A stretch of 64,000 nt of DNA from Giardia intestinalis (Eukaryota), in the NCBI GenBank assembly GCA_000002435.2, contig CM018793.1. One strand, given 5' to 3'. The notes under the pieces are model-generated. The model did not search any database. It was not told the origin of the DNA and saw only the letters and a program-made list of their open reading frames with translations. A program made the translations under genes and the position numbers. This document shows, one piece after another, positions 12,234 to 64,000 of this stretch. Within the stretch, counting starts at the first letter, position 1. Each line of letters begins with the position of its first letter.

Positions 12234-12265
12234 TAATAAAAATCTTTCGCGGAGAGCAGCTCGCT

Positions 12266-35200: not shown

Positions 35201-35595
35201 AAAGCCGCAATGCATCCCAAGTCACGGTGTATTGCTCTCGAACTGCCCGCTTAGTTACTCCACGACGTGAGGTAACATATGGCTCTTCACGCTTATATAC
35301 TAATCGGTGTAAAGTCGCGCTACAGAACCTCTGCGCTAATGTTGGCGATCTCCTAAAACCGCAACCCACCAGTTGAGGCAGCGAGCCTGAAAGCCAGACC
35401 ACCATGGTATCCCGGCGTGTGCTGTGTGCCGCTTGCTGAGGCTTTCACTATGGATTCTGTGCTCAAGTGGAATCGTACTCACCTTTACTTTGAGCCGGCC
35501 GAGACTCCGTGCCCTAGCCACTGCAGGCTAGAATAGTACCCCGTCGGCCGGCCGGGCGGAGAGCACCTAGCTACATGAGTCGTTGCCTTAGAGAA
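26256..35595. repeat. left arm of a ~9.34 kb near-perfect inverted repeat (palindrome arm); GC-rich, no long ORF
   Basis: Every ORF of 60 aa or more in this interval recurs on the opposite strand of 39032-48372, and coordinate sums are constant (74627, or 74628 outward of a 1-nt indel). Inner junction checked at base level: cgttgccttagagaa at 35581-35595 equals the reverse complement of 39032-39046. Outer junction lies near 26256-26260. Confidence 0.9.
34667..34762 (+). other. tRNA-like element (canonical T-arm, pairing acceptor ends; too long for a plain tRNA: intron-containing gene, pseudogene or tRNA-derived element)
   Basis: CCGGG-TTCGACT-CCCGG T-arm at 34738-34754. The 3' acceptor CGCCTCA pairs with TGGGGCG at 34667-34673 (one G-U). 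A D-arm-like GTGC/AGCGGGA/GCAT follows. About 33 nt separate the halves of a weak anticodon stem. A mirror copy lies at about 39865-39960 (-). Confidence 0.25.
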
Positions 35596-38700: not shown

Positions 38701-38907
38701 TATGAAAAGGGAATGAAGAGTACACGTGAATCAGAAACTATTCAGCATAATTCAAGCAGTCTTTCTGTTATTTTCAATGTAATACCGGACTCCTTTCCCT
38801 CGGGCTCAACAGCACTTGCGATAGCTAAGAAATGCAGCAAACTATTCGTTGGAAATTATCACCCCATTATCAATCTTCTTTCTCAGTATCCTGAAGAACG
38901 TTATTAG
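35797..38907 (+). CDS. protein kinase + coiled-coil + ~18 ankyrin repeats (NEK-like kinase-ankyrin protein); the only gene in the palindrome spacer
   Basis: Kinase subdomains: CGVIGTVYSL (Gly loop), VVREIKI, IHQDLKPDSILV (catalytic Asp present; N replaced by S), ITDFGF, YAAPEAL, SDVWSLGCIVYELITLKRPNF. Heptad region aa ~290-370. Then repeated TALMxAAxxGHxxxVxxLL units (18 counted). Confidence 0.85.
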   Translation: MTMHDPDQLSQPTEPLRVDQCNPVACGVIGTVYSLKNYPDAVVREIKIGDLPPDIMTALETEIDILPRLAHQNVLEYHQVLTAKDVVYICLPRYCWTLSAIIAISDIKNKRFSEQTVCIIFGQIASALAYLHDPNKCDIKGNPLPVFIHQDLKPDSILVSADETQYVITDFGFCREDLDRGSVVLGVPEYAAPEALILKKYTSASDVWSLGCIVYELITLKRPNFVGTRKPAEVFVDDWSPNLSAIKSTFLKEMLRRIFVVKPENRVSAKELAEILETWKSSRYIIRELKHKEQQIKWNQMLIDRSKRLEENCRQLKATLEDSKAEVRNQIDTIAKLENQSNESSLRIKLLEKEIATLRRTIAYLSPTTESASSTTLIDAVKNNSIDSVKSLVQNLEGLGLRDATDTTTLMCAVHQGKSELVELLATLKMGLQDNNDRNSLMHTAIHDYLQVSKILLPHETEIKDGNNNTAAILTAKERHGDIVDLFTFLNKDGTTALMQAVLQNNIKAIDVLIPLQKGARDNKGMTALMYAAANGHTDAVRFLLEYEKGIKDKNGHNALCHALKNNHLEIANSILQHDDPTDTEGVTALMRAAANNNVAIARLLLPIQKCLKDNKGATALMHAAKAGRLEMVDLLAEYESKCRDNNGQTALMYAASNGYFQATKALLKYEVQMKDNYNNTALSLAIKHRHTEITKLLLWYENDPSWTALMCAAVTGDFETARRHISERDLVDNNGRTALDLAKEAGHGSVIEILDHLDEKGFTALMRAAAQGDLDMVKVLIPVQKGMQTVTDGECSCKNDKYWFNKGTTALMLAAHYGHVDIVKELVKHEYNVHDTRGRTALMIAAAWGKINVVRDLIPFQKGMQTTGDGEYEAGEQGFWFNKGSTALIFASRHCRLNVIKELIEHESRMHDEFGGTALMWAARHGHTQAISLLMEREGRMQNERGWTALMWAVHSIKLEAVKLLIEYEKGMKSTRESETIQHNSSSLSVIFNVIPDSFPSGSTALAIAKKCSKLFVGNYHPIINLLSQYPEERY
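36990..38760 (+). repeat. tandem ~99-nt ankyrin-repeat coding units inside the kinase-ankyrin CDS
   Basis: Recurrent ggaacagctcttatg / acagcacttatg ... gctgcggcgaatggtcat-type units giving TALM(x)AA(x)xGH every ~33 codons. Confidence 0.8.
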
Positions 38908-39031: not shown

Positions 39032-42000
39032 TTCTCTAAGGCAACGACTCATGTAGCTAGGTGCTCTCCGCCCGGCCGGCCGACGGGGTACTATTCTAGC
39101 CTGCAGTGGCTAGGGCACGGAGTCTCGGCCGGCTCAAAGTAAAGGTGAGTACGATTCCACTTGAGCACAGAATCCATAGTGAAAGCCTCAGCAAGCGGCA
39201 CACAGCACACGCCGGGATACCATGGTGGTCTGGCTTTCAGGCTCGCTGCCTCAACTGGTGGGTTGCGGTTTTAGGAGATCGCCAACATTAGCGCAGAGGT
39301 TCTGTAGCGCGACTTTACACCGATTAGTATATAAGCGTGAAGAGCCATATGTTACCTCACGTCGTGGAGTAACTAAGCGGGCAGTTCGAGAGCAATACAC
39401 CGTGACTTGGGATGCATTGCGGCTTTTCTACGCCTCATATCACAATGCCCAGAGCACATAGGTGTCGATGCTTTGCTTACAGACACAAGGGGTCTGTTGC
39501 AGAATTCATCAGCATATCTGGCTTCATCTTCCGTAACTTTGTTCTGTCCTGAAAAGAGAGCAATCCTAGGGACTTGAGATCATTGCAGCGTGGCCACTTC
39601 CATGCAAACATACTTCCAGAAGCGCTGCTCCTTAACGAGTAGTCGCAATTTGCGATGTGATGGGTGGCCGTGGCGCAGACAGGCTCTGCTACCGCCGCGC
39701 CATAGAGCAGGTTGGAATGATCGGCATTACCGGCGATTTCTAGTAGCCTTCTCGCCGCATGCAGAGGCGCCGACCTGTGGACTGGGCACCTATTAAGGTT
39801 AATAAGATTAAAACGTGGCCTCTCAGGGATGCGGAGAAAGGACAGAAGGGGAAAAGGCGAACAACTGAGGCGCCGGGAGTCGAACCCGGGTCGTGACTCA
39901 ACAACCGGAAACCGGCCAAATATGTCAAGTGTCAGTATGCTCCCGCTGCACCACGCCCCACAGCGAGCGGCCGATGATAATGAAGGCTAGTTCTTTATTA
40001 TAAAAGGTTTACTCTCTCTGTTTCATTGGGGTGAGGTTGTCACCTGCTGTCTGAGTGTGATCTTCCCGTGCAAGCCACCACCACCTTAGGCAAGCAGGCC
40101 TTTGCTTGCTTCCAGCCAAGACCTGAACCCAGAGTTCAGAAATCAGACGTCGTCCAGTTCCGGCGGGAGAAGAAGCCCAAACAGAAAGCTGACGGCCCCG
40201 ATGTCCAGTCCCCAGTAAGCAATAAATCCGCGACTGCTCCCATGAGGCGCCACTGAGGAAGGTCCCTAGGACCCTGGAGCGAAACGCCAAGAAAGCGCCC
40301 AGCAACGTGAACGAAGAGGCCAGGAGACGAGAGTAAGGGAACTCCCACATTCTCTTCCCCCCACCGAACCTCCCTGTGTCAAAGAACGATTGCGTGGTGG
40401 CAAGGCTCTCAATGACCGTTTCTCCAGGAGACCACCTGGCCCCGACAGGGTCAATCACTGACTATACGAACTGGCTCACGAATGTCGGAGTTCACTTACG
40501 GGCCTGTACCCTTGAGGACCTCCTACATCATCCACAGCACGAGGAGCCACTCGGCCACTTCTGCGTCTCCTATCACGCCTCCTTCGACTCTCGAAGGGCC
40601 TCGAGCAACACGTTTGGGAAACCCTCTCCGTCTGAGCTCCTTCTGCAGCCTTGCGACAGACAGACGGTGCCAGCCCACGCACCAGGTCTCGGCGCCCGAG
40701 CGCGGTGTCCCGCGTGGGCCCTCACCATTGCCTGCCATGATGCCCCGGACAGAAAGCATCGGACCGGAGCGCTTCCCAGACTCCTCGGAGGCGCTCAGGG
40801 ACGACCCCAACTATCTGCCAGGACAGGCCAAGTCTGTGCGGTTGAGAGACCAGCAACACCAGAGCGCCCTTGAGTTGTTCGCGGCCCGGTGGAGCCAGGC
40901 CAGCCCTAGCCTCAAACAGGGGTCCCAGTCGCTGGCTATCCCCAGAGGGTCGTGGAACCTGCAGAACTCTACAAGGGAGACGTCGCCCCGGACACGCACC
41001 AGTGCACCGTGAACCCCACCCCTCAAGAGGGATAGATCAGGTATCACAGCGAGAACGAGGACCTTAGGAACCTGACGGAGAGGAGCACTCTGCGCTGGAG
41101 CGGCACCGGGCGAACGCCAAAGTAGTAGGAGCGGAAGAGCACGTGCCTGTCCTGCGCGAAGACCCTCCGCGGCGAGGCCGTCCAGACGCACTACAGCACA
41201 GACACCGGATGTAGGGTGCTACTGAGTGGGGCAACGGGGATAGAGAAGGACGTCCTCTTCAGCACCCGTCGTGCGAACGTGCTCAGGGGAGGGTACCTAC
41301 CACCCCGCAGAGCTCCAGTCGAGAGCCGAGGAGACGCGCCTCGCTCACACAGCGGGGAAGCGGAGGAGCGGCATTCACCATCCTACTGCCCGGCCTGCAG
41401 CCTCTGCCTCGCCTCGAGGGGGAGCTGCACCCTGACAGCGCCACCGACGACCAGCACCTTGCTATCCAGAGGGCCGGATCAGGACGGCCTGGCCCCTGAG
41501 AGACAAGAGCCCCCTCAGCCATCGGAGAGCACGGACGGCCAGTCCGCGGGGCTCGAAGTCCCCGGGCCTGCGCTGGCGAGTCCATCCGGGTGCAGGCGTT
41601 CCGGGGCCCCTAAACAGGCCTTCAACGAGATCCTCAGTGCGATCCATAGGATGGGATGCGTGCTCCGTACGGTTCCGCCTGGCCCTTCCCCAAGAATGGG
41701 ACAGGACAACCACGATCAGCAGACGATCATGATTCGCTTCACAAGGTAGTCCCGAGCCGCTTGGAGACCCAGACCCTGGCCTTCCTCGAGACCTAGCAGA
41801 CTGCGTTCCACTGGATGTACATGGGCGGCGTTCGCACGGTGCAGGGAGACGCAGACTGATGGGCACAGCGGTCTTGCTCGACATAACGAGAGCCCCAACA
41901 GCAGACGGCCTCGCCCAGGCAAGTGTACCCCTCATCCCGAGGAGCTGCGTCGAGGCCTTCCTTCGGCCGCGACACACGAGGTATCTGGACTCGGTCCCTC

Positions 42001-45000
42001 AGGGCCCTGCGCATGCTTCTGTGCGGCGTGGTACAGAACCTGCTCACCAGGAACTGAAGGAGATGCCCCACTCAGTGTCTATATTGACGACAGTGACGCG
42101 ATGGGGACAGTCACAGAGGCGACAGGCCTGGCGAAGCAACATGGCTTGACGGTCAGCACTGGGTGTAGGAGCACTGAGGGGCAGGAGGCCTCCTTCCTGG
42201 CCGGTCTCAAGGATCCCCCAAGACAACCGAGGGCCGAAGCCAGTGATGGCACCAATCACTCGCCAAGCTGGCCAGGATGGACCCACACGTGACCCATGTG
42301 AATCCCTCGACAGGCAAGTCGGGATCCTTGGAGTGTCTGGCTGACAGAAGTGGACTGATCCTGCCCGCACCGAAGAGTGGTGACCTGGGCCACCTGCCGG
42401 GCATCTGCCACAGCAGCTGGCAGTGCCTGACACCCTCGAGTAGACGGGCGCCGGTTGTAGAGAGAGACGGCCTAACGGCGAACCGGTCCCGATCGCTCGT
42501 GATGCTTTGGATGACGCCTCGACAGACCGAAGCATCACCCCAAGCACACCATGTGATGCGAGGATGGATGGAGCCCACACATCACTGAGCTAGACGCACT
42601 GCACAGGGTGAGCGTCGACATGATCTCGTGCTGAGTGACGGACCACCTGCAAGAGCGCACTGCGATCCATGAGCAGAGGGCCGAGCCTCTTCCCCGACAC
42701 AACACATGGGAGTGCTCCATCGACATCCACAAACGCGTACTATGACTCCAAGATAGAGGCGCACGGGGAGCGCACCCTCTGATCATACTCGGGACCGATG
42801 ATACAATCCGTGAGAAGACGAAGAAGCACCTCGAAGAACTAGAGGTTGATATCCCGAAGTTCATGGCATGCGATCTTCATCATAGAGAACCAAGACCTTG
42901 GAGTACATGACCAGGGTCAGCTGCTCCCTCAAGGCCAAGCTTGCCGTCGCGACTGACGCAGGACCCTGAGATAGTGTGTGCTCACTGGTGCCAAACGGTA
43001 GTGACCCCGACGAGCCAAAGGATGGGATGAATCCTCAGAAGACACCGCGAGAAGCAGCAGAGACTCCCGAGCGGCAGAACAAAACTTCTTCTCCTCCTGC
43101 CGAGATCGAAGACATCCGATCTCAGACTTCAGATTTCAATTTCTGGATTCTGGATTGTGGATTGTGGATCTCAGCCATGCAAGGGTGGGAGATACCCGCT
43201 TGCCCAGGGTGGCGGTGGCTTGCGTGGAAAGATCACAGACCCTATTTCTTTATTATGGTTTTTAGTGGCTGCTCGCTCGGTCTTCCTCAACAGCAGATCC
43301 ATAAGGATCACAATGGCTTGAACACAAAGCAAATCCTATACCGCGAATGCAGGGGGCCCTTCATAATGAGTGCAGACTAGGGGCCTAGAGCCAAACGATA
43401 GAAGACAGTAGCTGACCGAGATAGTGACTCCTGTACGCATGAAAGCCCGATCTCCTTGTTATCCGTGTACGACTAATGCATCAAGTAGCCTCCAAACCCC
43501 TAGCCATTAGATTGGCTTATTTCGACTCAACATACGACGCTTTGGCGTTCCCCTTCGTTTCTGGTGCGTTGTGTCACCAAACACAGATACTTTCAAGGGC
43601 TTCTCTGGAGACTACATGTGGCCTTTATATCTATGGGGCCTGTTACGGCAAGCTTAAGAGATACTACGCAGAGTATCGCTTCCGTTGACAACCACCACAA
43701 TATGTAGTTGGTACTCAGCTCTAGTACGCACCGTCATCGAGAGGTACGAATTACTATAGTTTCAAGCAGAAACTTTGAGGCATCTTGCAGGCCTAGAAAG
43801 CTGCCATGATGTATCCAAAAAGATAGGCCGTCCAGGTAATGGGAAGAGACGCAAAGAGATAGAGGTAGACCAGAATGCGATAGAATCAGAGGATCTACCG
43901 GTTGGTGTCAGATTGCGTATGGCTGAAAACTATCTGACCCTCACAAGGTATCTTTCTCCAAATACAGGGTTGCATAAATCATCAGTCAGCTGCCCCCTGC
44001 ATAACAGGTATTAAGTTGCCTTCCGCAAAGTCAGGCCGTTAAAATTAGCAACGTATCTCCCTACTTGTATCTGTTTACAAGTAATTACCTTACGCCACGC
44101 ATGGCTGCTTACACAAATCTATTTGTGGAGCAGTATTTAGCACATTATCTTTTCATTAGGCGGGCTACATTGAAGAAACTGTCCTATTCATCCTAATGAG
44201 TTAAGCTAATCGTAATTGACCATAGGAGTGGCACCCTCCCACAGGCCCATGCTTCGTCTTGCATATTTTTTACTGGAGAAGTTCGTTTGCTGTTTGTACG
44301 ATCCCGGTCTTTATAGCCCTTGCAGCCAAACTCAATTGGATCCATGTCTGATTCTCTGCCCAGGTCTCCTCCCGTCCTCTCTACCCGATCTGCTACTGCA
44401 GTAACGCCTAAGAGACGGTGCTTAGTTCGTATGTTTGTCCAGGCCTTCTGACCACAGAAGTATACGGCGGTTGGAATATCGTTGTGCCAGTCTACAGTTC
44501 CACGAATGCCCGGCCCATAGCAGACTCATTGCGCCTGCTAGCACTGATAAGCGTTATGCACAGAAACTAAGCAGGGTCTGGGTGTAGTGTACGGTGAACA
44601 CTGTGCCAATTAGCCAGAAACAGGAAGCTTTCTCCCGTGCATCAAAGTGCAAAGACGACGCTCAAAAGATGCCATACTGCGTATTGCGAAGTGGGTCAAC
44701 ATGCGTTCCCGTGTTAGGGAAGTTGAATCAGTTGCTGGCCTAAGCCGAGTGTCCTGGTGAGAGCCGCATAGCTACCTACTGTGGAGTCATATGACTCTCT
44801 GTCCTGGCGAAGCAATTTGACTAGGCCTGAGGGTAGCAGAAGCCGTGGCTGAACGGGCTGCGGCACTTCCAGAAGTGCGTTCCTTGATGTTAGCTGCAGC
44901 GTAGCGTTCTAGATGACTATCGATGACACAATTATTACAGCTATTAACCGATATTCCGGCGCGCTCATTGTAATGCCTGTTTGACCATTGGTTGTAGGGT

Positions 45001-48000
45001 AGTCGAGCAGTTAGAGATCCTCTGAGTCATGTAACGGTTCGTGCTTGTCTAATGCAAGTTTGAATCAAGGATGCTCCCAGAATGCTCTAAATGATCTGAG
45101 ACCACAGAAGTTCCAGGGGAGCCCACTCTGCTGAGGATGCGCGCCCATCTAGCCCAGGGTGGAGAATGGACCGGCAATAACCCATCTGGCTGTCTACTGG
45201 TCGTGTACTGTTGGGTCACAAAAGATCATGTGGGAACTTTTAGCCGCAATGGCCAGAATATTGGCTCATCTACTGATCCAGACAGATAACGAAGGCCATG
45301 CACCTTCGGAATAATTAAAGCACATCTTCGAGCGGCCCAATGGCTCGCTGCTGTGATCCATGGCCCCAGACGTGGGAAGTGACACGCAACAGTGCAGAGT
45401 AACATAGCAGAATAGAAAGGACACGTCACTCCTGGGGCTGCACTAGCAATAGCATATATTACTAGGGTCAGTTAGCATTCTCACAGTCTCTGCTGCTATG
45501 CTATAGTATTGCTTTAAGGACGTAATCAAGGCTCAAGCGTAATGATTAATGTAGTCCGTCGTAGCGGTAAGAACAACGGGCCCTTGCTTAAGATCTTGCG
45601 TCCCTCAGCTTGTTCTTCCCTAGCATAGCACAGGCCACAGAGGATCCGATCCAGCTCCTCAGCAATAGCCATGGTGAGCTGCTGGCTTCTTCGAGGCCCC
45701 TTCCAACTCTGGCATATGCAACGCAGGCGCCAACAGGTGGCTCTGCCCAGGAAAATAGGCCGGGCGGAGTGTCTATGCACATTGGAGTGCGCGATTTTTT
45801 CCTAGACGCTCATTTTTCTGAATCGAAAGCAAGTCTTGTTACTGGCCAGACAATGACCTACCAAGATGGAAGCCCTGTTGCCACAATGATTAGACACAAA
45901 TTTTCCAATGAACCACACTGTGTATTGCGCGCAATGTGGTACCCTGAAAACCAATCTTCTTACGTAGTGACTATATTTAGCATGCCATAGCCTGGACAGA
46001 AGTTCCTAAAATTAAGCCGTACTATGCTGCAGATCAGTTTTGATACACGCTGATAGATGTTCTAGAGAGTCTGCCCAAGGCATCCTTCTATTAACAGACA
46101 ACACTATGGTTTGTGGATCCTTCCTTCGCCTCTTTCAGTCTAAGCATAACCTTAGTACAAAATCCCAGAGCTCTTTGCTCGATCGCTTGAGATGTCTCGA
46201 AGTGCCTAGACTTAAGAGAAGCATCTGCCAGCCCTGACGAGTATGGTTGTGCCCTTATTAGAATCGTCCGAAGTGCTCTTCTGTGGTCCCAAAAATGCGT
46301 TAGCATAAAGCAGCGTTCTCTTAACAGGTATCCAGTATGTGCCCACCCGACTATATTACGTGCACGCTAGTTTCGCAAATGGCTCCCTCTTATCTTTAAT
46401 ACCCGGCAGAGTATCCTCAACGATCTTTTCTAGGCCCTTGTAGTACGCATGCATATCCTTCTGATGTTGATGCGCACATGTCAGACCCAGGCCCCAAGAG
46501 ACCTGACGGCAGGCCGAGATTTGCTGCAGCGCGCCATCTTGTAGTCCCCGCTAGTCGTCGCTGGTGACATGCTGAACATACGCTGGAAGGCTGTGCAATG
46601 TAGCTTCTAACGCTGTTGCGGCCCAGCCTTTTCGGTGATTTCTCTGCGAGGGCCACTCCTCCTCTCGGTCTTCCGTGACCGAGATCGAGATCGAGAGTCA
46701 CTACCTATAGTGCCACGGAATTCAAGACGCGGATATCTCGACGGACAGTCTACTCTTCTAGTACCCGATCCATCTCCTTTCAAGGCGGATCTTTATCGAT
46801 GCAGAAGGTAGAAGGCTAGCTCTACTGATGCTTACATGCGGCCTTGCTGGACTGGCCGGTCCTACCGAGCAAGCGGACTCTGTGCAGAGACCCTTGCATA
46901 ACAGAGCATGCAGCGCAGAGAGGTGGGCAGGGACTCCAGTCCGGATCAGAAAAGTGGTTGGACGGGCACCACCGTGCCATCAGCAAGTGTAGACCCTTGG
47001 ATAGGGTGCTTCTTCTATACTCGCGGTCATAGTATTCCCTGCTTGAATGGCTGGGTTATCACCGTCGTCAGGCAAGTCGAGTACATCCAGTGTGACCGTG
47101 TATCTGAGCATGTATGCTTTCTCTTTGCTATTGTCCTTTGGACATACTTGGGCGGTCGCTAAGCTTTTGTCGAAGGCTAGAAGCCGCGGACGCGATCTAT
47201 TGTAAACGGTCTATCTGCGCGTCCCCGAACAAAAGCCAGATCACAGGGGCCAATAGGTGTGAACAGAGATCAAAGCTCTAGAGCCAAGTTCCTCTATGAG
47301 AGAATAGAAGCGGGCCTGCGCTCTTCACTCGGTCGAAGTAAATGGTGTCAGAATTTCTATCGGCAATATCATAGCCAGTAGCAGCCTCTTTTGTGTGGTT
47401 TTTGTCACGTGCCGAAGAATGCACAGGGACAGTGAACGGGCACCGTGGCAGTGCCCGTTGCTTCACAGAGATACCGAAGGGCACAGCAGCTAGTATCTCA
47501 AGCCAGGCTCTCAGAATGTGCAGAGATCCAGATGTCTCATCACTATATTCTTCTCTTTGGGGAGGTTCGGCACTTGCGGCAGAGCTACCCTGCTAGTTGC
47601 AGTATGGAGGCGATGCTCTCAATTATCGTGCTGCGTATGGCAAGGACCCCCGAGATGCTCTCAGAACCTAAAAGGTTCTCTTCTGTGCTTATAGGGAGCC
47701 AGCAGGCCTGAGTAGTGCCGCTTGCGATGTTCCTTATAGCCCCAACTGCTCTCTCCGTCGTGCGAGATAGGCAAACCGGCAGAGGAGCCTCTTCTTTTGA
47801 AATCTAGAACCATCGGGCAGCCTGTACTTGGTCATCGAAAGAGTACGGGGAATCTGATGCTGCACCGAGAACTCTTAAGCAACTGCACAGAGCCTGTCTC
47901 TGTTGCGAGTCTCCGGTAGCTGTGACCAGCATCGAGGTACTCAGCACACTCAATGGCTAGGCGAACACACCGCTTGGCCCGAAGCATCTGCACGATCGCG

Positions 48001-48372
48001 CCTCTGCCATCCAGATCCCAGGCTCTTCCTACAAAGCTCGAGAGCAGGCTTTAGATAGCATGCTCCTATCGCTAGTCCGGGATGTCATCTGCCCACAACA
48101 TACGAGGCTCGTCTCCTTCGAGTCCCCCGCTCTTGCAGCTGGCCTGGACAGACTAGAGGTCACCAGGGCAGCTCGCCGAGCCTGCTGTAACGCATAGCGC
48201 TAGAGGCAGGATGCTCTCCGTGCGTCGCCCGTCCGGCAACGGAGGCCGTCTTCGGCCTGCCTCGTCTTCTACGCGCCGGCGGACACTCAGCGGCGACGCG
48301 GGCCACCAGGGCGCTACGGCAAGGGCGTCCCCCCGCAGCAAGGGCCAGCAGGCAGAGGCCCGCGTCGTGAGG
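39032..48372. repeat. right arm of the inverted repeat (reverse complement of 26256-35595)
   Basis: See left arm. The one difference found is an extra T in ggcattcacc near 41376, where the left arm reads ggtgatgcc near 33251. Confidence 0.9.
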
Positions 48373-48567
48373 CGTATTCAGGAGAAGAGATCATCCTATG
48401 GCGGGACATGTGACTATATCATTTTCACGTGACAATGTCATCTTTTTTGTACCACCAAGGTTGCAGATCCATTAGTGCGTCTACTTTTTCTTTGTTAAGG
48501 CAAAACCTCATTGGCTCTTGAATTCCTTAGCGAATTTCCTTTTCACTTTGTATATTATTAACGCACA

Positions 48568-53179: not shown

Positions 53180-54340
53180 ATGATTGACATCCAGGCAAAG
53201 ATTCGACACCAGGCACTCAGCAACGCTGCCGCGCTCAAAGAGGTCGGGGAATTTGTTGAGCGTATCTCCAAGAAGGACGAGGAAGCCACACACGCTGCCG
53301 CCACATTTGATCCATCGACCGTTAAAGTGCCCCCCATCCGGTGCTATGAGATTCCACTTGAGGAAGAAAAATCGGGGCTGTACACCGCTGAAGAGTATAA
53401 GGCTGTTGGTAACAAGCTGTTTGGAGAGCGCAAGTTTGAGAAGGCATTGGACTACTACGAGTGTGCCGGACGCATAGACCCAGGTATGGCGGCTGCCTTT
53501 GGGAATGCAGGCCTCTGCTACCAAAAGCTTAAGCGCGAAGATGAGGCCCTTGCCTCCTTCTCACGAGCTATAGGGATAGACCCTCAATATACGAAGATAC
53601 TCGTAAGACGTGGACGTCTGTATCTAGATCGAGGAGACTACCAAGCCTCATACGCCGACCTGTCCTTGGCACTCACTCTCCTTCCTGAGAAGGGGCGACA
53701 GGAGGTGCAGCAGGACTTAGAGCTTGTTAAATCAAAGTTAGTACCGGTGACTACTGTCACTACTACCACTGTAGGAGCAGCCGATATATTTGCTACTCAA
53801 AACACAGCAAGCAGAGGGAAATCCATCGCCATAGACATGAGCTGTCTCGATGAGGCGGTCGAGTCAAAGTCTCCCATAGGCTCTCCGTCACGCCCAACAG
53901 CCGTTCGGTTACGAGATTGCAAGAGAAACATCCCTTCCAACAAAGCCAAGCCTTCCGTTCCTCCTCCACCAACTTCAGCATTTTCTTTGTATAGCGACGT
54001 GCTTCATCTAAGTGAGCACTTGGACGTCTTGGCAGAATATCTTAACTCCTTCCACAGTGCGGTATTAGAATCTTACCTGTCAAGCCAGTTGACTGATAAG
54101 GAAATCAAGAGCATCGTGGCTGCCATTGGCCTACACAAGCTTTCCGCAAAGAAAACCATCAATACCCTTTATGCACTGACTCGCTTACCAAATCTCTCCT
54201 TCCTAAGCCCCTTTTTGTCAGAGGAGATAAAAACGACCATGCGTGCTACTCTTGAGTGGGCATTGCATCAGATTCCAGAGGACCAGGCTGAAGTATATAA
54301 TGAGAGAAACGATGAGGTGCGCGAGGCCTTTTGTCTCTAG
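53180..54340 (+). CDS. TPR-repeat protein (3 TPRs; SGT/Hop/TTC1-like architecture)
   Basis: EEYKAVGNKLFGERKFEKALDYYECAGRIDPGMAAAFGNAGLCYQKLKREDEALASFSRAIGIDPQYTKILVRRGRLYLDRGDYQASYADLSLALTLLPE forms three tandem 34-residue TPR motifs. AGTAAAC lies downstream of the stop. Confidence 0.7.
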   Translation: MIDIQAKIRHQALSNAAALKEVGEFVERISKKDEEATHAAATFDPSTVKVPPIRCYEIPLEEEKSGLYTAEEYKAVGNKLFGERKFEKALDYYECAGRIDPGMAAAFGNAGLCYQKLKREDEALASFSRAIGIDPQYTKILVRRGRLYLDRGDYQASYADLSLALTLLPEKGRQEVQQDLELVKSKLVPVTTVTTTTVGAADIFATQNTASRGKSIAIDMSCLDEAVESKSPIGSPSRPTAVRLRDCKRNIPSNKAKPSVPPPPTSAFSLYSDVLHLSEHLDVLAEYLNSFHSAVLESYLSSQLTDKEIKSIVAAIGLHKLSAKKTINTLYALTRLPNLSFLSPFLSEEIKTTMRATLEWALHQIPEDQAEVYNERNDEVREAFCL

Positions 54341-54535
54341 TTGTACTCGTATCTGTGTCCTGAGAGGGACATAGATCGATCCCTGAAGCCGTGTAGGTGT
54401 AAGAACCTATAGCAGCACGTTCTAAAGTAAACAGCCAGGTTTTAAAAGCACCCACTATTTACAGTCCCCCCGAAGGATAGAAAAATGAAGTAAGATAGAA
54501 CTAGTCTCCCATCATAGCTGAGTTGAAGTTGAGAA

Positions 54536-55642
54536 TCAATACACATCAACGTCCATCTGCTGACGTCGGATGTTGGCAGCTGCATCTTTGATTAGAGAAG
54601 GTGGTAAACTGATCCCCTTCGCCTTAAGCATTTGGCGAAGCTCGGTGACCTCTATTTTAGGATGCTCAGCTAAGATAGCTGCGATTGTTGAGTGCATTTC
54701 GGGGGAAACAACCTTCTTGGATCTCCGCCCCCTCGGCCCCACCTCAAGCTGACCACAATCTCGGAACTTTCTAACGATGTTTATTGCTGCACTATACTTT
54801 AGGTTGAGTTGCTTCACTGCTGATTGCACGTTCATCCCATCAATGCACACCATGTGAATAAGCCGCTCACGCGTTTCCTGGGGTATGATTAAATACTCTC
54901 TTTTGTTGCTAGCTGATCTCCCTCGTTGAGGGATATGAATAGAATGATCTTCAGGGCCAAGCTCACTAATGCTTAGTTGGTCATGTTCGTGGATTTGATT
55001 CTGGTTATAATCTTGGTGACCGTTGTTCTCTTCTGGCATGGTGTTGATCCCTAAAGTGAGGCTAAGCTTAGGATCAGAAGCCGGTCCATGATCATGAGGC
55101 AGGTCAGGGTCGTGGACAAGAGTGATAGTATTATCGGGAGCCGAGTTAGAATCGGAGCCGAGGCTAGTGCCAATCCGCTGCTCAACGTGCTTAACTATGC
55201 CTTGCTGATTTTGGCCAGGACCCAGATTGGCGGGTGGCATGAAGTCATCTCTGAAGAGCTGCCCATTGTCGACTTGCGGTAGCTCAAAGACATGATCCAT
55301 GTCTGGTCTATAGAATGTACAGCCCATGCTCCTTTTCCCGCTGCTGCTAGATAGCGATACATTAATCGATGGTGGGTCATTCAACCCTATTCGACTGGCC
55401 TTCAGAGAAGATGAATGCGAGCTAGGAGTGCTGCCATTTGAGCCTATATCTTTAAAAACAGGTAACATGTCACCATCTCCAGGGATAGCTGAGATGGTGG
55501 ATCGCCGCAAATTCCGAGCGGATGTGATAAGCCCCGGGGGCAACTGTCTAAACAATGGGGAGGTTAATTCCCGACTAAGCTCGGTCATCAGGTCTGTACC
55601 GCTTCCTGAGAAGACAGGAGCATGCTCATCATACTCGGACAT
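54536..55642 (-). CDS. low-complexity protein with C-terminal paired-like bipartite HTH DNA-binding domain (Pax paired / Tc1-transposase type)
   Basis: C-terminal RLIHMVCIDGMNVQSAVKQLNLKYSAAINIVRKFRDCGQLEVGPRGRRSKKVVSPEMHSTIAAILAEHPKIEVTELRQMLKAKGISLPPSLIKDAAANI aligns position by position with the Pax paired domain recalled from memory ([57 protein letters not shown]...NPTMFAWEIRDRLLAEGV...PSVSSINRII). The track start 55663 is TTG; the first ATG is at 55642, with cctaaaaaaatacc upstream. Confidence 0.5.
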   Translation of the reverse strand: MSEYDEHAPVFSGSGTDLMTELSRELTSPLFRQLPPGLITSARNLRRSTISAIPGDGDMLPVFKDIGSNGSTPSSHSSSLKASRIGLNDPPSINVSLSSSSGKRSMGCTFYRPDMDHVFELPQVDNGQLFRDDFMPPANLGPGQNQQGIVKHVEQRIGTSLGSDSNSAPDNTITLVHDPDLPHDHGPASDPKLSLTLGINTMPEENNGHQDYNQNQIHEHDQLSISELGPEDHSIHIPQRGRSASNKREYLIIPQETRERLIHMVCIDGMNVQSAVKQLNLKYSAAINIVRKFRDCGQLEVGPRGRRSKKVVSPEMHSTIAAILAEHPKIEVTELRQMLKAKGISLPPSLIKDAAANIRRQQMDVDVY

Positions 55643-55745
55643 TGGCAATGTATAGGTGAGCAAGACCGAGAGGTCTGCAACCGACAGGTATTTTTTTAGG
55701 CTGACGAATCAGAAGACGGTTTACTTTGGACGGGGGTATACAATC

Positions 55746-56462
55746 TTAGATAAAAGATCCAGGAGTACTGAGCAGGGACGTACCTTCAGGTTGGAGGATG
55801 CCCGAGTTTGGTTTTATGGGCGCGGAGGATCTCTTTTGCCTTTTAATGAGGAAATAGAAAGCCAGAGTTGTCATAACTGCACAGAGAAGTACGGTGACTA
55901 TCACTGAGATGGCTACGGCTGCGCCTGCCGAAAGACACTTATCAGAATTTCCAAAACCTGCACAGATGCAATCTCCATAGGCCATAGTCCACCCATTCTT
56001 GCATGATACGCAGTGTTCTCGCTCTCTGTCGTACGAGTCGTTATATCGAAAGCACATTCCTCGACTCAGAGATCGATAGCAGCCGTTCCCGATTTTCTGA
56101 TACCCTTTGCTACAATCGTGACACGTTGGGACAATCTGGTCTCCCTCATGCTTAAGGTTGCAGTTTCCAAATTCAAACTGCTTCCAGCAACTTTTATCTA
56201 TAAGGACGTGGTCGTTCGTGCAAGCCGTACATCTGATTTCCTCGTCATTATAATGAAAGCAATTCTCGTTGAAGCAATATGTGCATGTAGGGTAGCACAA
56301 TCTGTCCGCGTCAGTGTCTTGGGGATTCACGTAGGGCGTGTATCCTACCTGGCACGTGCAAGCGTCTGTACCCGCACCAGTTATGCAAGGAGCGGGATCA
56401 GTTGCACCTTTAAATCTATATGGCAGAAGCCACAGTGTAGCTGCAACTAGAGTAGCAGCCAT
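55746..56462 (-). CDS. cysteine-rich type-I membrane protein (signal peptide, CxxC/CxC-rich ectodomain, single TM, short tail)
   Basis: MAATLVAATLWLL signal-like start. About 28 Cys including CTAC, CHDC and CVSC. TM AAVAISVIVTVLLCAVMTTLAFYFLI followed by KRQKR. This resembles diplomonad high-cysteine membrane proteins, though not the VSP CRGKA tail. Confidence 0.6.
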   Translation of the reverse strand: MAATLVAATLWLLPYRFKGATDPAPCITGAGTDACTCQVGYTPYVNPQDTDADRLCYPTCTYCFNENCFHYNDEEIRCTACTNDHVLIDKSCWKQFEFGNCNLKHEGDQIVPTCHDCSKGYQKIGNGCYRSLSRGMCFRYNDSYDREREHCVSCKNGWTMAYGDCICAGFGNSDKCLSAGAAVAISVIVTVLLCAVMTTLAFYFLIKRQKRSSAPIKPNSGILQPEGTSLLSTPGSFI

Positions 56463-56602: not shown

Positions 56603-57652
56603 TTACATCATCCTTTTAGCGGCTTCAGCTATGTTTTCTAGACAGGGTCTTTCCGCTGGGTCTATAGATAGACAGGCGTTTAAGACGTGCCTCAATTCAT
56701 CACTAAATTGGCTCTGTGACTGTTGCATCACGTTCGGGCTACCATTATTAGATGGAATCTGCTTCGTAGGAAGCCTTGTAGGAAGTTCGATGGGCCTGGG
56801 AAGACGTGTTATGCTTAAGTAGAGGTCTATTTCGCGTCCTGTGGTAAATGGGCGCTTCTTGAAGATCAGCTCGTACAAGTAGCAGCCAAGGGCCCATATA
56901 TCGCCCGACAGAAGAGTATTTGTCGCTCCAGGGACGCTGTCACCGTTGCTGTTGGTTTCAAGTTGCTCGGGCGCCTTGTACAAGTCTATGGCTACGGATA
57001 TGTGCAGATTTAGGGGTGCGGTTATTTTCAGCTCTGACGACATCCCCACATCCATGAGCTTCACACTCCCATCTTTGTCCAGGTATATGTTTTCGGGCTT
57101 AAGAGAGGCATGTGCCACAGGGCCCCTACCAAGGGGGTTTCCGTGCAAATATCTGAGCGCGGACACTATCTGACTCAAGGTCTTCCATATCATGGACTCA
57201 GTCATGGGCTCGTGGCTTCCAGAAGCACCCATGCTCTCTCTCAAGCTGGGACGGGCCTCATCACGCGAAACTAGCTCTCTAGCGTCCCCGAGGAGAGGGG
57301 AGATAATGTACAATCGAAGGATAGTTGAATCATATATGGCATCGATGGGCGAATTGATGTTTGGATGGCATAGCTGCAGCTGGATACTCGCACACTCAAG
57401 GAGCTGCTTTTGATGAGGCTCAGTATACATGTCACAAGGTATTTCTTTGCATGCAAAAACCGTTTTGGTATTTTTCTTACGAACGACATATACGCGGCCG
57501 TGTGGACCCAGGCCCACCGAGGCTGACATTATGAAGTACGTTTTTGTCTCATCACTATAAGGGTTTAGTTTGACAGTCTTTTCAACAGGGATTTCCTCTT
57601 TATCATAATACTCAGCCAGGCTACCACTCCTAATCCCCGCGGGAAACGCCAT
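56603..57652 (-). CDS. protein-kinase-fold protein, predicted pseudokinase
   Basis: VFACKEI (beta3 Lys), HASLKPENIYLD in place of HRDLKPEN (catalytic Asp absent), DVG in place of DFG, YKAPEQL, GDIWALGCYLYELIFKKRPF. Confidence 0.7.
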   Translation of the reverse strand: MAFPAGIRSGSLAEYYDKEEIPVEKTVKLNPYSDETKTYFIMSASVGLGPHGRVYVVRKKNTKTVFACKEIPCDMYTEPHQKQLLECASIQLQLCHPNINSPIDAIYDSTILRLYIISPLLGDARELVSRDEARPSLRESMGASGSHEPMTESMIWKTLSQIVSALRYLHGNPLGRGPVAHASLKPENIYLDKDGSVKLMDVGMSSELKITAPLNLHISVAIDLYKAPEQLETNSNGDSVPGATNTLLSGDIWALGCYLYELIFKKRPFTTGREIDLYLSITRLPRPIELPTRLPTKQIPSNNGSPNVMQQSQSQFSDELRHVLNACLSIDPAERPCLENIAEAAKRMM

Positions 57653-58877: not shown

Positions 58878-61800
58878 TTATGTTGTCAAGAGAACATCTA
58901 AGAAAAACCTCGCTCCATATTCCTCGAGCTGCTCTCGGAGTGGCTTACTATTGGATTTTAGATCTCTATGTTGCGATAGAATAGATAATACATTGTTGAT
59001 ATGGCAGCCCCGGATGTAACTCAGCCCTGCCATGATCACGTCAGCCATTCTCTTGTACGCGCCCTTAAATCCGGTGCTACGATAGATGATGTCAAGCAAG
59101 GATTGAGCCAGATAATCGGCTGACCTTTGGGAGATAACTGCGGTATCGACTACGGCAATGTGCACTAGAGCGACGCGGGTAAACGTTAGAATGTTGATAA
59201 ACCCATGAGACGTGGGTGGGAATATCTGGAGAACTCGCCGGGCCACATAGAGTGCTTTTACGAGTAGGCCTGCTCGAGCATACGCCTCCAGCAGCACGGA
59301 GCAAACAAGCTTAGAGGGCAAGAGCGTTGCGTCGGAGCGCATGTATTGAATGCTTAATATCGAAATGCTGTCAAAGTCGGGAAGGGACTCCTTGTAGATT
59401 GCCTTGGCACCCTTGCTAGTAAAGGGAGTGGATTCAGAGTCGTCAGTGGGAGCCCCCTCTGACTTCTGTGTAGAGATAAAGGTAATGTTGTCCTTTTCAA
59501 GCAGTTCCGCCTCATTTCTAATTCTGAAATACTTGCAGCAGCACGCAATCACAAAGATGCATACATTGAATACGCATTCCTTTATAGCCACCATGTTGTT
59601 GTAAGCGACCTGGCACTCAAAGGCCAGCGTTTCCAGCTCACTAGCATTTCTGAAGGAGAGGAAAGCACTGGTCGCATAGAGGCACAGAGCGAGAGGCTGC
59701 GATATAACATTCTCTACCACATCGCTGGATAGGAGATAGATCGTCTGTTTGTACGAAATAAGGTGAGCACGCACGGTTTGATCAATGTGGGGAAGAATGT
59801 GTATTGACGTTAGCTCAAAGATGTAAGATAGTAGAGGAGGAATAAAGTTGTAACTCTGTAACGACCTCTCCGCAGAGCCCATTGTTTTTTGAGACTTTGT
59901 TTCTTCTAGCTGCAGCATCTCTGCAACGGCCTTCACAATGTGGAACATTGCGGCCTTGGGGAGCTCGTGAATGTAACTTGGAGCAATAGCTGCAAGAATC
60001 CCTATCATGGCAATTCCCTCAATTGTTGTCCCATACAAGAGGCACCGCTCCACCATAGCTGCTGCCAGTGACAAGTACAGCTCCGTTAAGTCCCGTAAGA
60101 AAAGCGCATAAAAGATAAGGAAGAGGAGCTTTTGGATGGATCTCTCCAGCAACGATGCCCTCTTCATATATTGCATAAGCGCATAGGGGGTCGAGGGAGA
60201 CTTCAGTGAGTCAAAAGCAACCATGATTGCAGCCTGTGGATGCGGCTTCAGTCCATTACCCTCAACAAGATTGGTAGTGAAGAGAAGAGAGAGGGTCGCA
60301 ACAATAGTGTCCCGGTGAATGCTTTTATTCATGGTTATCATAGGTAGGAAAGCGTTGATGTGCGCCTCATCTCCAAGCAACTTCTGCAGCATTGAGACAG
60401 CGATTGAGACAGCCCGCGCCGGCTTGTTACTCTGTATCATGCCCAGTGTCCACTCCCATATAAGTCCCAGCCAGTAATGCTTGTACACCTCATTTGATAG
60501 TTTGTCGGTTACATATGTGGACTGCACCAGATTGTATCTTGTGGTGAAGCGGATTGACTGTACCGAATAGCAGATGCTGTTTGCACATGTAAAGTTAAAT
60601 AGCAAGGGAAATGCATTGTACAACGCGGTAAGTTCAGAATCGGTACCGACCTGTATGGTCTCATTATACATTGTGTCAATCATGTCTGTCGGATCCGTCC
60701 CATTGGGGTCTGACTTTGAAACCAGGCTTTGGAGCGCATTTGGTTTACCAGGCAGAGCATCTGCATTGCCACTGGTAATGGGAGAGCTGTGGGCACTGTT
60801 AGGGTTTGAGAGTACACCTATGGTACACTTGAGTAGCGAGTCTAGGTCAAGGGAATTAGCAGTTTTGAACGTCAGCAGGGGCCTCTTCTGGGCAACAACC
60901 TTATAGTTCGACAGGGACCAGTTCTGCCTTTCCATTGGATTGAGACATAGCATGGCCATAGCAGTCCAGATTTCGTGCTCAGCTGACTTTGCCATTGAAA
61001 GGTATTTGCTGATGTCAGCAAAGCTCTTAGAGAGGATGTCGCATGCATATGTGTTTAGTCTCAGAAGTTCATACTGGTCATAAATGTCGAGCAATTTGCT
61101 TGCACACGGATTGAGGCACTTCAGAAGCTTGGTTATGTCCACAAAAAGTCCATCATATTGCTCTAGGAGACATGCCCGTGTGCTTGGTGTTCTGAGGTCG
61201 GCTTCCATTTGCTTAAGAAAAGCCTCTTGCTGTTGCCAGTTGTTTACCCCCATGTTATGGTCAAAAAAGAAGGTCTTGTGAGTGCGCAAAGCAATCCGTA
61301 ATGAAAGAGAGGCCTTGTTAATCTGAAGATCATTTAATGAAACATCTGCCGCCTTACCCGAAGCCCTCAATAGAGAAACAAAGTCCAAGTGGAGCTTTCT
61401 GATTAGTTCTCCCGTCTCCAGCTCTCTGGGATCATAGTTTCTTATATAGAGGGACGGCTTAAGGTCGGATTTTCTCTCCAAAACAGAGTCCCGTGCAATC
61501 CACCTCTTCCGAAGATATAGTGCGATCAGGAATAGCTTTTGGCTCATGCCAGATGTAAATGACTCTTCCAGAACCTTGCATAGACTGATATTATTAAACA
61601 GAAAAATGTAGCCTATCCGATTTGTAGATTTGTTAGGATTGTAGGGATTGTGGGCTAGGTCCACGCCATGGTCTGCACCTCCTTGTGCATAAAGCGGATG
61701 CCTAAGCTGTACAAATTGTGGGGCGCAAGAAATTAGATGCATATTAGAAAGCTCAGTGAGAGACGTGAGGATCACATCGTCGTTACTGTAATTGAGGGCA

Positions 61801-64000
61801 CTTGTAAGCCAGCGCATGTCGAAAATAGTGCCAAAGACAGACGATGCGCAAAGTATACCCATGTCCCCGTCCGATAGCTTCTTAGAGTTTCTCAAACCAA
61901 GAAAGCGTCTTAAGATAACCTGATCTATGTCAGGAATCGCGTCTAGAGCAGTCTTGCTATAGCGCGCTTGCGAGCCTGTGATGCCAGAAATACCATACAG
62001 CGTCAGAATCAGCAATTTGATGTTGAGCATTATTGACCCTGATTTCCTCAAGATCTGCTCCACCAAGTCCACCGTATTAACAGATGGGAGTCCTCCCTTT
62101 CCTTCTGGGCCATCTGGCGATAACATGAGGGACTTCAATATAAAGGTTTGTGCCATGTCATCTGGAACTTGATCCAGTAAGATGTAAGACGGGTTAAGCA
62201 AGCGTTTGACTGCTAAGTTGAAGCTGTATGGCCGGGCAAATAGGTCTTTAATCTTTAGCTCTTGGTTGGAATTGCGTGCAGAAGCAGAATATCCTTGAAC
62301 ATAGCTTTGCTTTATACCAGAAGAGAGAACCGATGCCCCTGAGGCGCTGTTGACGCTAGTTGATGAGCGTGCGTCATCAACTGTCGACTGAGCCTGCGTC
62401 TTGGTACTAGCTTGATGAGTGGGAGACTCTTTGGATAGCACCTTGAAGGACGATAAGATCTTTTTTGCTCTGCTGTACTGCTTGCCAGAAACAGGAGAGA
62501 CAGCATCATCCTTTGTATTCGGCGCAGAGTCAGGTGTTCCAGTCCATGAAAAGCTCTCGGGATATATGCAAGGGGAAAGAGACTCACTTAAAATGACATA
62601 AAATCTATCAACATTGAGATTGCCTACGAAAGAATAAAATCTTTTGATGAAGTCCTTACTGCACTCAGAGACTAGGTCGTCGAGAACAAGGACAAAGACA
62701 GATGCACGGGTAAGCACAGAGCGAACCAAAATCCCAAAGACGGACTCATAGTAATCTATGGAGACAGCAGTTTTAATATCATCTAGCTTCCCGCGTATGT
62801 TCATTGCTGCAGCCAGAGATGGTAGAACAAAGGGTAACTTAGCTAGTATACTGGGATTCATCTTTTCTCCGATGCTACTGAGCAAGGGCTTGTCATCTAA
62901 CCTAGCGATATACCTAGCAAGATAGAGATCTATCAAATGAAACTCACCGTCGAACTCAATGTACGAGTGTGTGAGCTTGCACTTTATATCATCTTCTGTG
63001 AGATACAACATGGGCGACAATTCTGGGCCTGAAATACAAGACAGCACATCACCATTATCCTCTGTTTGTATGTGACTTTCAAATCGCTTCAGTTGCTCGG
63101 GTGTTTCAATTTCTTGCATACTTTTAGGCAACTCCCTAATCAGGTGTGAAGTTGTGTGACACATTCTGTAGTAGGTAGCATCGCATGTGTAAAGGTTGCG
63201 CTCATCATCAAACGCAAAAGAGCTAGAGATTTGCTTGAAAGGCACATAAAGGCAGAAGCCGAGCAGGCTATCTCTGACTATACGCATTAGGTCCCCAAGC
63301 AACACAGACCTGCCAGATCCCCGTAGGCCAGCCAAGCAGCAAATCTTTTTCAGAGGTCGAGCTGCACACTGGGTCTTAGTTGAAGAATAGGCAAATAAGT
63401 TTTGCTGAAGGGCCGGAGTCTCCTTTTTTATATTTTCGAACGCTAACATTGCTTTTCTAGTGGCTAAAATGTCATATATCTCTGGAAGCTCTACCGAATA
63501 ATGGGACGCCGTATAGCACTCGACTACATAGTTAGTATCTGTCTTGAAAAGAGCTCGACGAAATTCAACCGGAAAAGTCTCTGAAATGTTCTTCAGTATT
63601 GCTTGAATGTGTATGTCATTGAATGAGAGCCGTATGGAGAGCATTCTCTTCACCATCACCTCAGAGGATAGAGGGTTTATGGGCATGTTCTTAGGTAAGG
63701 ATGCCTCGAGAAGCATTGCTGGGTTTGCGTTGACCGCCTTCCAATAATTCAAAATGTCAGTGTGAGCCTCTGCTGCAGAAAGATAGATCCGAGACTCTGA
63801 AAGGCACAGCAGGCGTAAGATAAACTCGTTGCAGAATGGACCCAAGCTGTACTGCTGGAGCTTCTTGAGCGCGTCCTCCCTTGCTCGTCTCCACCCCGGT
63901 TCTGCGTCATGATATTTCAGTGAGAACGGGGAGGGTGGACACTCTTGCGTGAGAAGCTTGTAGAGGAAAAACCCCATTTGGTAAAGGTCTGTAAGTGGGC
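58878..64000 (-). CDS. large (>1700 aa) protein with N-terminal protein-kinase domain (only kinase subdomains IX-XI fall inside the window; 5' end beyond 64000)
   Basis: The minus-strand frame stays open to the window edge. PLTDLYQMGFFLYKLLTQECPPSPF matches the kinase subdomain IX pattern D[IV]WSxGxxLYELLTG..PF. A ~1650 aa non-repetitive C-terminal extension follows, with no recognised motifs. Confidence 0.6.
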   Translation of the reverse strand, partial: PLTDLYQMGFFLYKLLTQECPPSPFSLKYHDAEPGWRRAREDALKKLQQYSLGPFCNEFILRLLCLSESRIYLSAAEAHTDILNYWKAVNANPAMLLEASLPKNMPINPLSSEVMVKRMLSIRLSFNDIHIQAILKNISETFPVEFRRALFKTDTNYVVECYTASHYSVELPEIYDILATRKAMLAFENIKKETPALQQNLFAYSSTKTQCAARPLKKICCLAGLRGSGRSVLLGDLMRIVRDSLLGFCLYVPFKQISSSFAFDDERNLYTCDATYYRMCHTTSHLIRELPKSMQEIETPEQLKRFESHIQTEDNGDVLSCISGPELSPMLYLTEDDIKCKLTHSYIEFDGEFHLIDLYLARYIARLDDKPLLSSIGEKMNPSILAKLPFVLPSLAAAMNIRGKLDDIKTAVSIDYYESVFGILVRSVLTRASVFVLVLDDLVSECSKDFIKRFYSFVGNLNVDRFYVILSESLSPCIYPESFSWTGTPDSAPNTKDDAVSPVSGKQYSRAKKILSSFKVLSKESPTHQASTKTQAQSTVDDARSSTSVNSASGASVLSSGIKQSYVQGYSASARNSNQELKIKDLFARPYSFNLAVKRLLNPSYILLDQVPDDMAQTFILKSLMLSPDGPEGKGGLPSVNTVDLVEQILRKSGSIMLNIKLLILTLYGISGITGSQARYSKTALDAIPDIDQVILRRFLGLRNSKKLSDGDMGILCASSVFGTIFDMRWLTSALNYSNDDVILTSLTELSNMHLISCAPQFVQLRHPLYAQGGADHGVDLAHNPYNPNKSTNRIGYIFLFNNISLCKVLEESFTSGMSQKLFLIALYLRKRWIARDSVLERKSDLKPSLYIRNYDPRELETGELIRKLHLDFVSLLRASGKAADVSLNDLQINKASLSLRIALRTHKTFFFDHNMGVNNWQQQEAFLKQMEADLRTPSTRACLLEQYDGLFVDITKLLKCLNPCASKLLDIYDQYELLRLNTYACDILSKSFADISKYLSMAKSAEHEIWTAMAMLCLNPMERQNWSLSNYKVVAQKRPLLTFKTANSLDLDSLLKCTIGVLSNPNSAHSSPITSGNADALPGKPNALQSLVSKSDPNGTDPTDMIDTMYNETIQVGTDSELTALYNAFPLLFNFTCANSICYSVQSIRFTTRYNLVQSTYVTDKLSNEVYKHYWLGLIWEWTLGMIQSNKPARAVSIAVSMLQKLLGDEAHINAFLPMITMNKSIHRDTIVATLSLLFTTNLVEGNGLKPHPQAAIMVAFDSLKSPSTPYALMQYMKRASLLERSIQKLLFLIFYALFLRDLTELYLSLAAAMVERCLLYGTTIEGIAMIGILAAIAPSYIHELPKAAMFHIVKAVAEMLQLEETKSQKTMGSAERSLQSYNFIPPLLSYIFELTSIHILPHIDQTVRAHLISYKQTIYLLSSDVVENVISQPLALCLYATSAFLSFRNASELETLAFECQVAYNNMVAIKECVFNVCIFVIACCCKYFRIRNEAELLEKDNITFISTQKSEGAPTDDSESTPFTSKGAKAIYKESLPDFDSISILSIQYMRSDATLLPSKLVCSVLLEAYARAGLLVKALYVARRVLQIFPPTSHGFINILTFTRVALVHIAVVDTAVISQRSADYLAQSLLDIIYRSTGFKGAYKRMADVIMAGLSYIRGCHINNVLSILSQHRDLKSNSKPLREQLEEYGARFFLDVLLTT

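Follow-up and report, generated by a model that had tools for sequence, protein, structure and literature searches.

The gene considered here is encoded on the minus strand of the window, i.e., the whole stretch of 64,000 nucleotides of Giardia intestinalis contig CM018793.1 (assembly GCA_000002435.2) that was analyzed. It is almost certainly pax1 of Giardia duodenalis/lamblia (GL50803_32686), the product of which is a nuclear transcription factor with a C-terminal bipartite helix-turn-helix (HTH). Concerning the origin of this protein, the favored reading, to which we assign a probability of about 0.55, is that giardial Pax1 is not a Pax orthologue. It would be the outcome of an independent, lineage-restricted domestication of the DNA-binding domain of an IS630/Tc1-mariner-type transposase, with loss of the DDE domain, addition of a disordered N-terminus, and fixation at a locus whose synteny is shared by Giardia and at least one distant relative. 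If this is true, such an independent domestication would parallel the way in which the paired domain of animals has been proposed to arise.

The identity of the gene was established from its translation. With the start at ATG 55642 and the stop at 54536–54538, the product has 368 amino acids and shows 100% identity with 100% coverage to GL50803_0032686 of Giardia duodenalis (P0001); when mismatches to GL50803_32686 were looked for, zero were found. The list of open reading frames (ORFs) offered a TTG start at 55663, which gives 375 amino acids. This start was set aside in favor of ATG 55642 because the product of the latter equals the database protein over its exact full length. ORF 32686 is the giardial Pax1, XM_001704983, discovered by BLAST with the Pox meso paired domain from Drosophila as the query (PMC3280250), and the name pax1 has been used for it in later work too (PMC6411161). 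The published Giardia lamblia Pax1 (Chuang et al. 2012, PMC3280250) and the window protein are the same, without any difference. In view of this 100% identity, the finding was already known: papers of 2010–2012 describe this protein together with its function and its paired-like domain at the C-terminus, and no new discovery is involved. Several database records still label GL50803_0032686 as ‘hypothetical protein’. The primary paper on giardial Pax1 is that of Wang et al. 2010 (J Biol Chem 285:32213). Pax1 is one of the characterized regulators of encystation, through which Giardia becomes transmissible, and for this reason its identity matters for annotation. The increment provided here is modest: in an exhaustive search, the domain comes out closer to the DNA-binding modules of transposases than to those of animal Pax proteins, and the HTH module is shown by a short syntenic orthologue to be the only ancient part. 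Both points, the transposase affinity and the orthologue (P0006, described below), bear on whether ‘Pax’ predates animals.

The last ~120 residues, which are basic, form in the AlphaFold2 model two three-helix bundles joined by a basic linker (residues ~253–367). The helices run over 255–267, 272–279 and 283–293 in the first, PAI-like bundle, and over 314–326, 332–341 and 348–367 in the second, RED-like bundle, which thus ends in a long C-terminal helix. Their predicted local distance difference test (pLDDT) values are ~73–89, while the linker (294–313) has low pLDDT. The putative recognition helix of the PAI-like subdomain is 283–293 (YSAAINIVRKF). A preliminary description, made from the sequence alone, had proposed a paired-box-like bipartite HTH at the C-terminus, and this was borne out by Pfam, AlphaFold2 and Foldseek. 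Its suggestion to search with the PAX and HTH_32 models gave matches to both, though marginal ones below their cutoffs: HTH_32 covered residues 289–347 (E 1.6e-4, 22.6 bits), and PAX, the second-best Pfam match of the protein, aligned 92 residues, with model positions 18–109 of 125 on residues 253–345 (E 2.4e-4, 21.4 bits, gathering score 22). HTH_29 also matched. The PAX matches were weak in all five Giardia sequences available (best E 2.3e-4).

When PDB sequences were searched with phmmer, only paired domains were retrieved (Prd 1pdn, Pax8 2k27, Pax5 1k78 and Pax6 6pax; E 0.013–0.07). The alignments showed ~20% identity and, along 92 positions, just one gap of one residue, in agreement with the earlier statement that the last ~100 residues can be aligned with Pax. 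The linker aligned to the Pax linker without gaps. Concerning the motif GxxGxxKxK, which the preliminary description had given as common to both linkers, its GxxG part is indeed shared, but not the exact motif: the Giardia linker reads GPRGRRSKKV, and the form common to Pax is GxxGxxxxKV. At the level of structure, the best four Foldseek matches in PDB were Pax5, Pax6, Pax8 and Prd (E 2.5e-3 to 1.5e-2, probability 0.96–1.0), with 18–22% identity over 115–135 aligned columns (124–125 for Pax5 and Pax6). Another search of PDB sequences, run with a profile built from all five Giardia proteins at full length, lost the Pax matches and returned only noise (OPA1, lectins). This profile failed because the sequences are too similar to each other and the N-terminus is of low complexity.

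The relatives of the domain were sought by comparing residues 240–368, with phmmer, to 1.84 billion representative proteins at E ≤ 1e-3. This search yielded 25 matches, none of which was a metazoan Pax. The closest non-Giardia sequences were bipartite HTHs of the IS630/Tc1-mariner type, with 27–32% identity and 36–60 bits over ~100 residues spanning both HTHs. P0008 is an Anopheles protein with the arrangement ZAD-HTH-HTH-DDE_3 (60 bits), and P0019 is a nematode protein annotated as ‘Transposase’, whose cluster contains a member of 365 amino acids (P0032) with DDE_3; the DDE_3-bearing matches scored 38–60 bits. Apart from the orthologues of the Giardia lineage, the remaining matches were short bipartite HTHs of microsporidian and bacterial type and fungal proteins with tandem HTH repeats. 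Considering the curated models of transposases, the NCBIfam IS630 model (NF033545) matched with its positions 2–96 of 299 (E 1.3e-5, 24.8 bits), a score well under the cutoff set for the whole protein, which is what a fragment should give, and IS481 matched too. In direct comparisons, the Giardia domain scored 29–49 bits against transposase-type HTHs and 19–21 bits against Pax domains. With hhalign, the Giardia alignment matched the transposase-type alignment with a probability of 99.8% (E 9e-28) and four Pax domains with 89.1% (E 2e-6), a contrast that is inflated because the transposase-type set was picked by its similarity to the query; the transposase-type alignment itself matched the Pax domains with 98.2% (E 3e-14). 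Several transposase-type proteins reached 27–35 bits on Pfam PAX, i.e., above the threshold that Giardia Pax1 does not reach, so the marginal PAX match cannot separate Pax proteins from transposases.

The conservation of the protein was considered in five Giardia sequences, i.e., the window protein and four other clusters that are 91%, 74%, 63% and 63% identical to it (one from Giardia lamblia P15 and three Logan-assembly proteins presumed to be from Giardia). The C-terminal ~120 residues are near-invariant among them, while overall identity drops to ~63–68%. The PAI-like subdomain is identical in all five, and the linker changes only by V301I and V311I; the mid N-terminal region is divergent, with indels. 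A more distant protein, P0006, which came from the phmmer search of 1.84 billion proteins, has 201 amino acids. Its identity of 44% is limited to the HTH module, which is preceded by an unrelated, short N-terminus of ~80 amino acids. Its gene occupies 6001–6606 of an 82.9-kb Logan contig (L001, from SRR31929897) of a quite divergent Giardia-like source, and lies tail-to-tail with a convergent TPR + RPAP3_C gene (6690–8012 of L001). In the window, a convergent TPR + RPAP3_C gene (53180–54340, plus strand) lies 195 bp past the pax1 stop, and the two TPR + RPAP3_C proteins are 38–45% identical. Since this tail-to-tail arrangement is shared, P0006 is a syntenic orthologue in a distant relative. 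From these comparisons, the HTH module is the ancient, constrained part of the protein, and the long low-complexity region a Giardia-specific elaboration.

Concerning traces of a mobile element, no DDE domain was found in the Pax1 protein (Pfam), in the neighbor genes or in the six-frame translation of the window, as the preliminary description had stated for the protein. Terminal inverted repeats around pax1 were absent within 54000–56200. The six-frame scan of the window with Giardia-domain, transposase-HTH and Pax profiles detected the pax1 ORF alone, with no second HTH gene or paralogue, so that the recommended search for paralogues or transposase relics came out empty within the window. 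The locus is therefore neither an intact transposon nor one that decayed recently: a DDE domain and flanking inverted repeats are lacking, and the window contains only one copy.

Three other explanations have to be weighed against the domestication of a transposase domain. The one with the most in its favor, though unlikely, is that Pax1 belongs to the Pax family by descent, i.e., that a pre-animal paired-box gene was retained in Giardia and the name expresses orthology. This would agree with the 92 residues aligned by the PAX model, with PDB sequence matches being paired domains only, with the four Pax and Prd structures at the head of the Foldseek results, and with the name ‘Paired domain-containing protein’ that UniRef gives to the orthologue of assemblage E. 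The metazoan paired domain (PF00292) indeed shares with Giardia Pax1 the PAI + linker + RED fold, ~20% identity and the linker pattern G..G....KV. Nevertheless, several of the features that define Pax failed. The PAX score is under threshold, and real transposase fragments outscore Giardia Pax1 on that same model. The β-hairpin that precedes helix 1 is missing: positions 1–17 of the PAX model are unmatched, no strand is predicted (241–250 is a low-confidence segment) and there is no NQLGG-type motif. The domain is C-terminal (253–367 of 368), whereas the metazoan paired domain is N-terminal; this unusual placement, remarked on in the preliminary description, had already been published in 2010 and 2012. 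As for accessory motifs, no homeodomain was matched by Pfam in Giardia Pax1, and the protein has been described as devoid of homeodomain and octapeptide (PMC3280250). It is also reported to differ from metazoan Pax in its AT-rich targets, the Pax consensus being GT-rich (GTYMMSS-type), and in the few DNA-contact residues conserved, its domain being ~20% identical to that of Pax6 (PMC3280250). Finally, the nearest relatives are not Pax proteins: 0 of the 25 significant matches is a metazoan Pax, and the scores of 36–60 bits for transposase-type HTHs compare with ~18–21 bits for Pax.

The other two explanations are very improbable. One is that the gene is what remains of a decaying Tc1/mariner-type element, an N-terminal transposase fragment without a function for the host. 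It is consistent with the nearest non-Giardia relatives being transposase DNA-binding domains, and with many of the matches being short fragments of such genes. A decaying relic is, however, difficult to reconcile with a domain that stays near-invariant in Giardia lineages with diverging N-terminal halves, with synteny kept in a relative whose neighbor gene is only 38–45% identical, with the lack of terminal inverted repeats and of any DDE remnant, and with the published protein expression, nuclear localization and knockdown phenotype. The other is that a generic three-helix HTH protein matches the paired domain by chance. Against this stand the register of both bundles and the linker over ~92–125 positions with a single one-residue gap, the transitive link from Giardia to the transposase-type HTHs (E 9e-28) and from these to Pax (E 3e-14), and the coincidence of five independent curated models (PAX, HTH_32, HTH_29, IS630 and IS481) on the same region. 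The marginal curated matches and the hhalign comparisons, taken jointly, indicate a paired-like similarity that clearly exceeds chance.

On balance, the protein resembles, and works like, a paired-type bipartite HTH factor, and a domesticated transposase DNA-binding domain seems to be its most economical origin. Giardia Pax1 shares the type of bipartite HTH with IS630/Tc1/mariner transposases (NF033545; HTH_32, HTH_29, HTH_28; Tc3 1u78). These have a DDE/D domain, terminal inverted repeats and multiple copies, while Giardia Pax1 has none of them and a single copy in the window; besides, its locus is conserved in synteny, unlike those elements, and its HTH module is C-terminal, behind a disordered region, instead of N-terminal. 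Several points weigh against a transposase origin or the functional account joined to it. In addition to the inflated hhalign contrast, the affinities for curated models are approximately equal and all below cutoff (PAX 21.4, IS630 24.8 and HTH_32 22.6 bits). Foldseek ranks POU, CENP-B, Tc3 and Mos1 below Pax, so that Pax structures fit better than those of Tc3 and Mos1. The Pax1-specific biochemistry is second-hand, through PMC3280250 and later papers, and the published functional data come mostly from overexpression, with a loose binding specificity (AT-rich, flexible). The idea of a transposase-derived transcription factor, already advanced in the preliminary description, is thus supported in two different ways: the transcription factor role is published, while the view that the DNA-binding module descends from a transposase of the IS630/Tc1-mariner type, and not from a metazoan-type Pax gene, is suggested by similarity and not proven.

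Concerning function, the biochemistry of Pax1 is given here as summarized in the 2012 paper (PMC3280250) of the group that published the primary one, and in later papers. The expression of pax1 increases in encystation, and Pax1 binds the AT-rich initiators of the cyst wall protein genes cwp1–3 and of myb2, which go up ~1.6- to 3-fold with Pax1 overexpression (PMC3280250). Pax1 is negatively autoregulated, is phosphorylated by ERK1-associated complexes, and co-precipitates with them (PMC3280250). Work from an independent laboratory localized PAX1 to the nuclei at 0 and 1.5 h of encystation and reported that CWP1 was reduced by PAX1 knockdown. A second protein of Giardia lamblia, Pax2 (ORF 16640), is reported to have the same C-terminal paired-like architecture and to bind AT-rich initiators too, with overlapping targets and redundancy with Pax1, and its domain is 11% identical to that of Pax1 (PMC3280250). 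No protein of 302 amino acids, as Pax2 is, appeared among the phmmer matches, and no Pax2-like gene was seen in the six-frame translation of the window.

These data can be put together in a possible mechanism. The identity with ORF 32686, the fold, the absence of DDE, the nuclear localization, the DNA binding and the effect on cwp genes rest on the tools and papers mentioned above. The C-terminal module, with its PAI-like and RED-like bundles and the basic linker between them, is the only folded part of the protein. By analogy with Pax/Tc3 complexes, helices 283–293 and 348–367 might act as recognition helices in successive major grooves, with the linker in the minor groove; this groove-by-groove binding mode is tentative, and the minor-groove contact is taken from Pax6/Prd structures as described in PMC3280250. 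The net effect, as published, is the up-regulation of genes for cyst-wall proteins in the course of encystation.

The N-terminal 247 residues were claimed in the preliminary description to be S/P/N/Q-rich, which agrees with their composition: S/P/N/Q/G/T/D amount to 55% (Ser 13.8%, Pro 8.9%, Gly 8.5%, Asp 8.1%, Asn 6.1%). The region has 31 D+E versus 18 K+R, and AlphaFold2 gives pLDDT <50 almost throughout, with hardly any secondary structure. S28-P29 and T72-P73 are S/T-P sites invariant in the five Giardia sequences, among which some short N-terminal blocks are kept; these blocks are not found in P0006. Regulatory or transactivation functions, including ERK1-dependent phosphorylation, are probably carried by this region. 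Upstream of the gene, an A-rich element could be a candidate AT-rich initiator or Pax-binding site, judging from its letters. The coordinates of all these features are summarized in Table 1.

Table 1. Positions in the window of pax1, its encoded regions and an upstream element
Feature	Position	Strand	Basis
pax1 coding sequence (368 amino acids + stop)	54536..55642	-	ORF list, translation, identity to GL50803_0032686
N-terminal region, residues 1–247, S/P/G/D/N-rich, net acidic, predicted disordered	54902..55642	-	Composition, AlphaFold2
PAI-like subdomain, residues 253–293, three helices	54764..54886	-	AlphaFold2; Pfam PAX from model position 18; Prd/Pax5/Pax8 alignment
Basic linker, residues 294–313 (RDCGQLEVGPRGRRSKKVVS)	54704..54763	-	Counterpart of Pax/Tc3 minor-groove linker
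RED-like subdomain, residues 314–367, three helices	54542..54703	-	AlphaFold2 pLDDT 79–89; HTH_32; PAX to model position 109
A-rich element TAAAAAAATA, candidate only	55689..55698	-	47–56 nucleotides upstream of ATG, read from sequence

Some of the proteins matched by phmmer are worth describing on their own. P0007, P0009 and P0012 (Pilaira-type, Mucoromycota) and P0010, P0021 and P0028 (Neoconidiobolus-type) have 438–757 amino acids and contain from four to seven or more tandem PAI-like HTHs with the motif ‘RTYKxYTPQDKExL...GMSTRAAAxQLGINPSTAQxWVKK’. The Pilaira-type proteins end, after these repeats, in one RED-like segment at the C-terminus. Only P0007 and P0010 could be traced to named species, both of them fungi. 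These fungal-type proteins look like amplified arrays of transposase-derived DNA-binding domains. Another case is P0030 (KAF7696413.1, Cucumispora dikerogammari), which is annotated as ‘Paired box protein Pax-1’, falls into the same 90%-identity cluster as P0014, a transposase-type HTH, and has HTH_32 as its sole Pfam match (28.9 bits, below the cutoff of 33.7). Its Pax name is probably a mis-annotation.

Upstream of pax1 there is an ORF for a Cys-rich membrane protein (55746–56462, minus strand), as well as a protein kinase gene (56603–57652, minus strand). The Cys-rich protein has 238 amino acids, shows CxxC-type spacing, contains a hydrophobic segment at the C-terminus, and has no Pfam match; we take it to resemble the high-cysteine membrane proteins of Giardia. 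An Rfam search of the window gave no match.

Elsewhere in the window, a near-perfect inverted repeat has arms at 26255–35595 and 39032–48373, of 9341 and 9342 nucleotides, respectively, with a one-base difference; the repeat was detected in two pieces, 6999 and 2343 nucleotides long, both 100% complementary. The 3.4-kb spacer between the arms contains one gene (35797–38907, plus strand), coding for a protein kinase with ankyrin repeats. The arms have no ORF larger than ~200 amino acids, no Pfam, Rfam or tandem-repeat matches, and a GC-rich block (0.62–0.64) in each of them, at 32–34 kb and 40–42 kb. Such ~9 kb without genes are odd for the compact genome of Giardia, and the inverted repeat could be either a real palindrome or an assembly artefact. 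The window also contains very long ORFs: 12197–23971 (plus strand, 3924 amino acids), 4028–10207 (plus strand, 2059 amino acids) and 58878–63977 (minus strand, 1699 amino acids).
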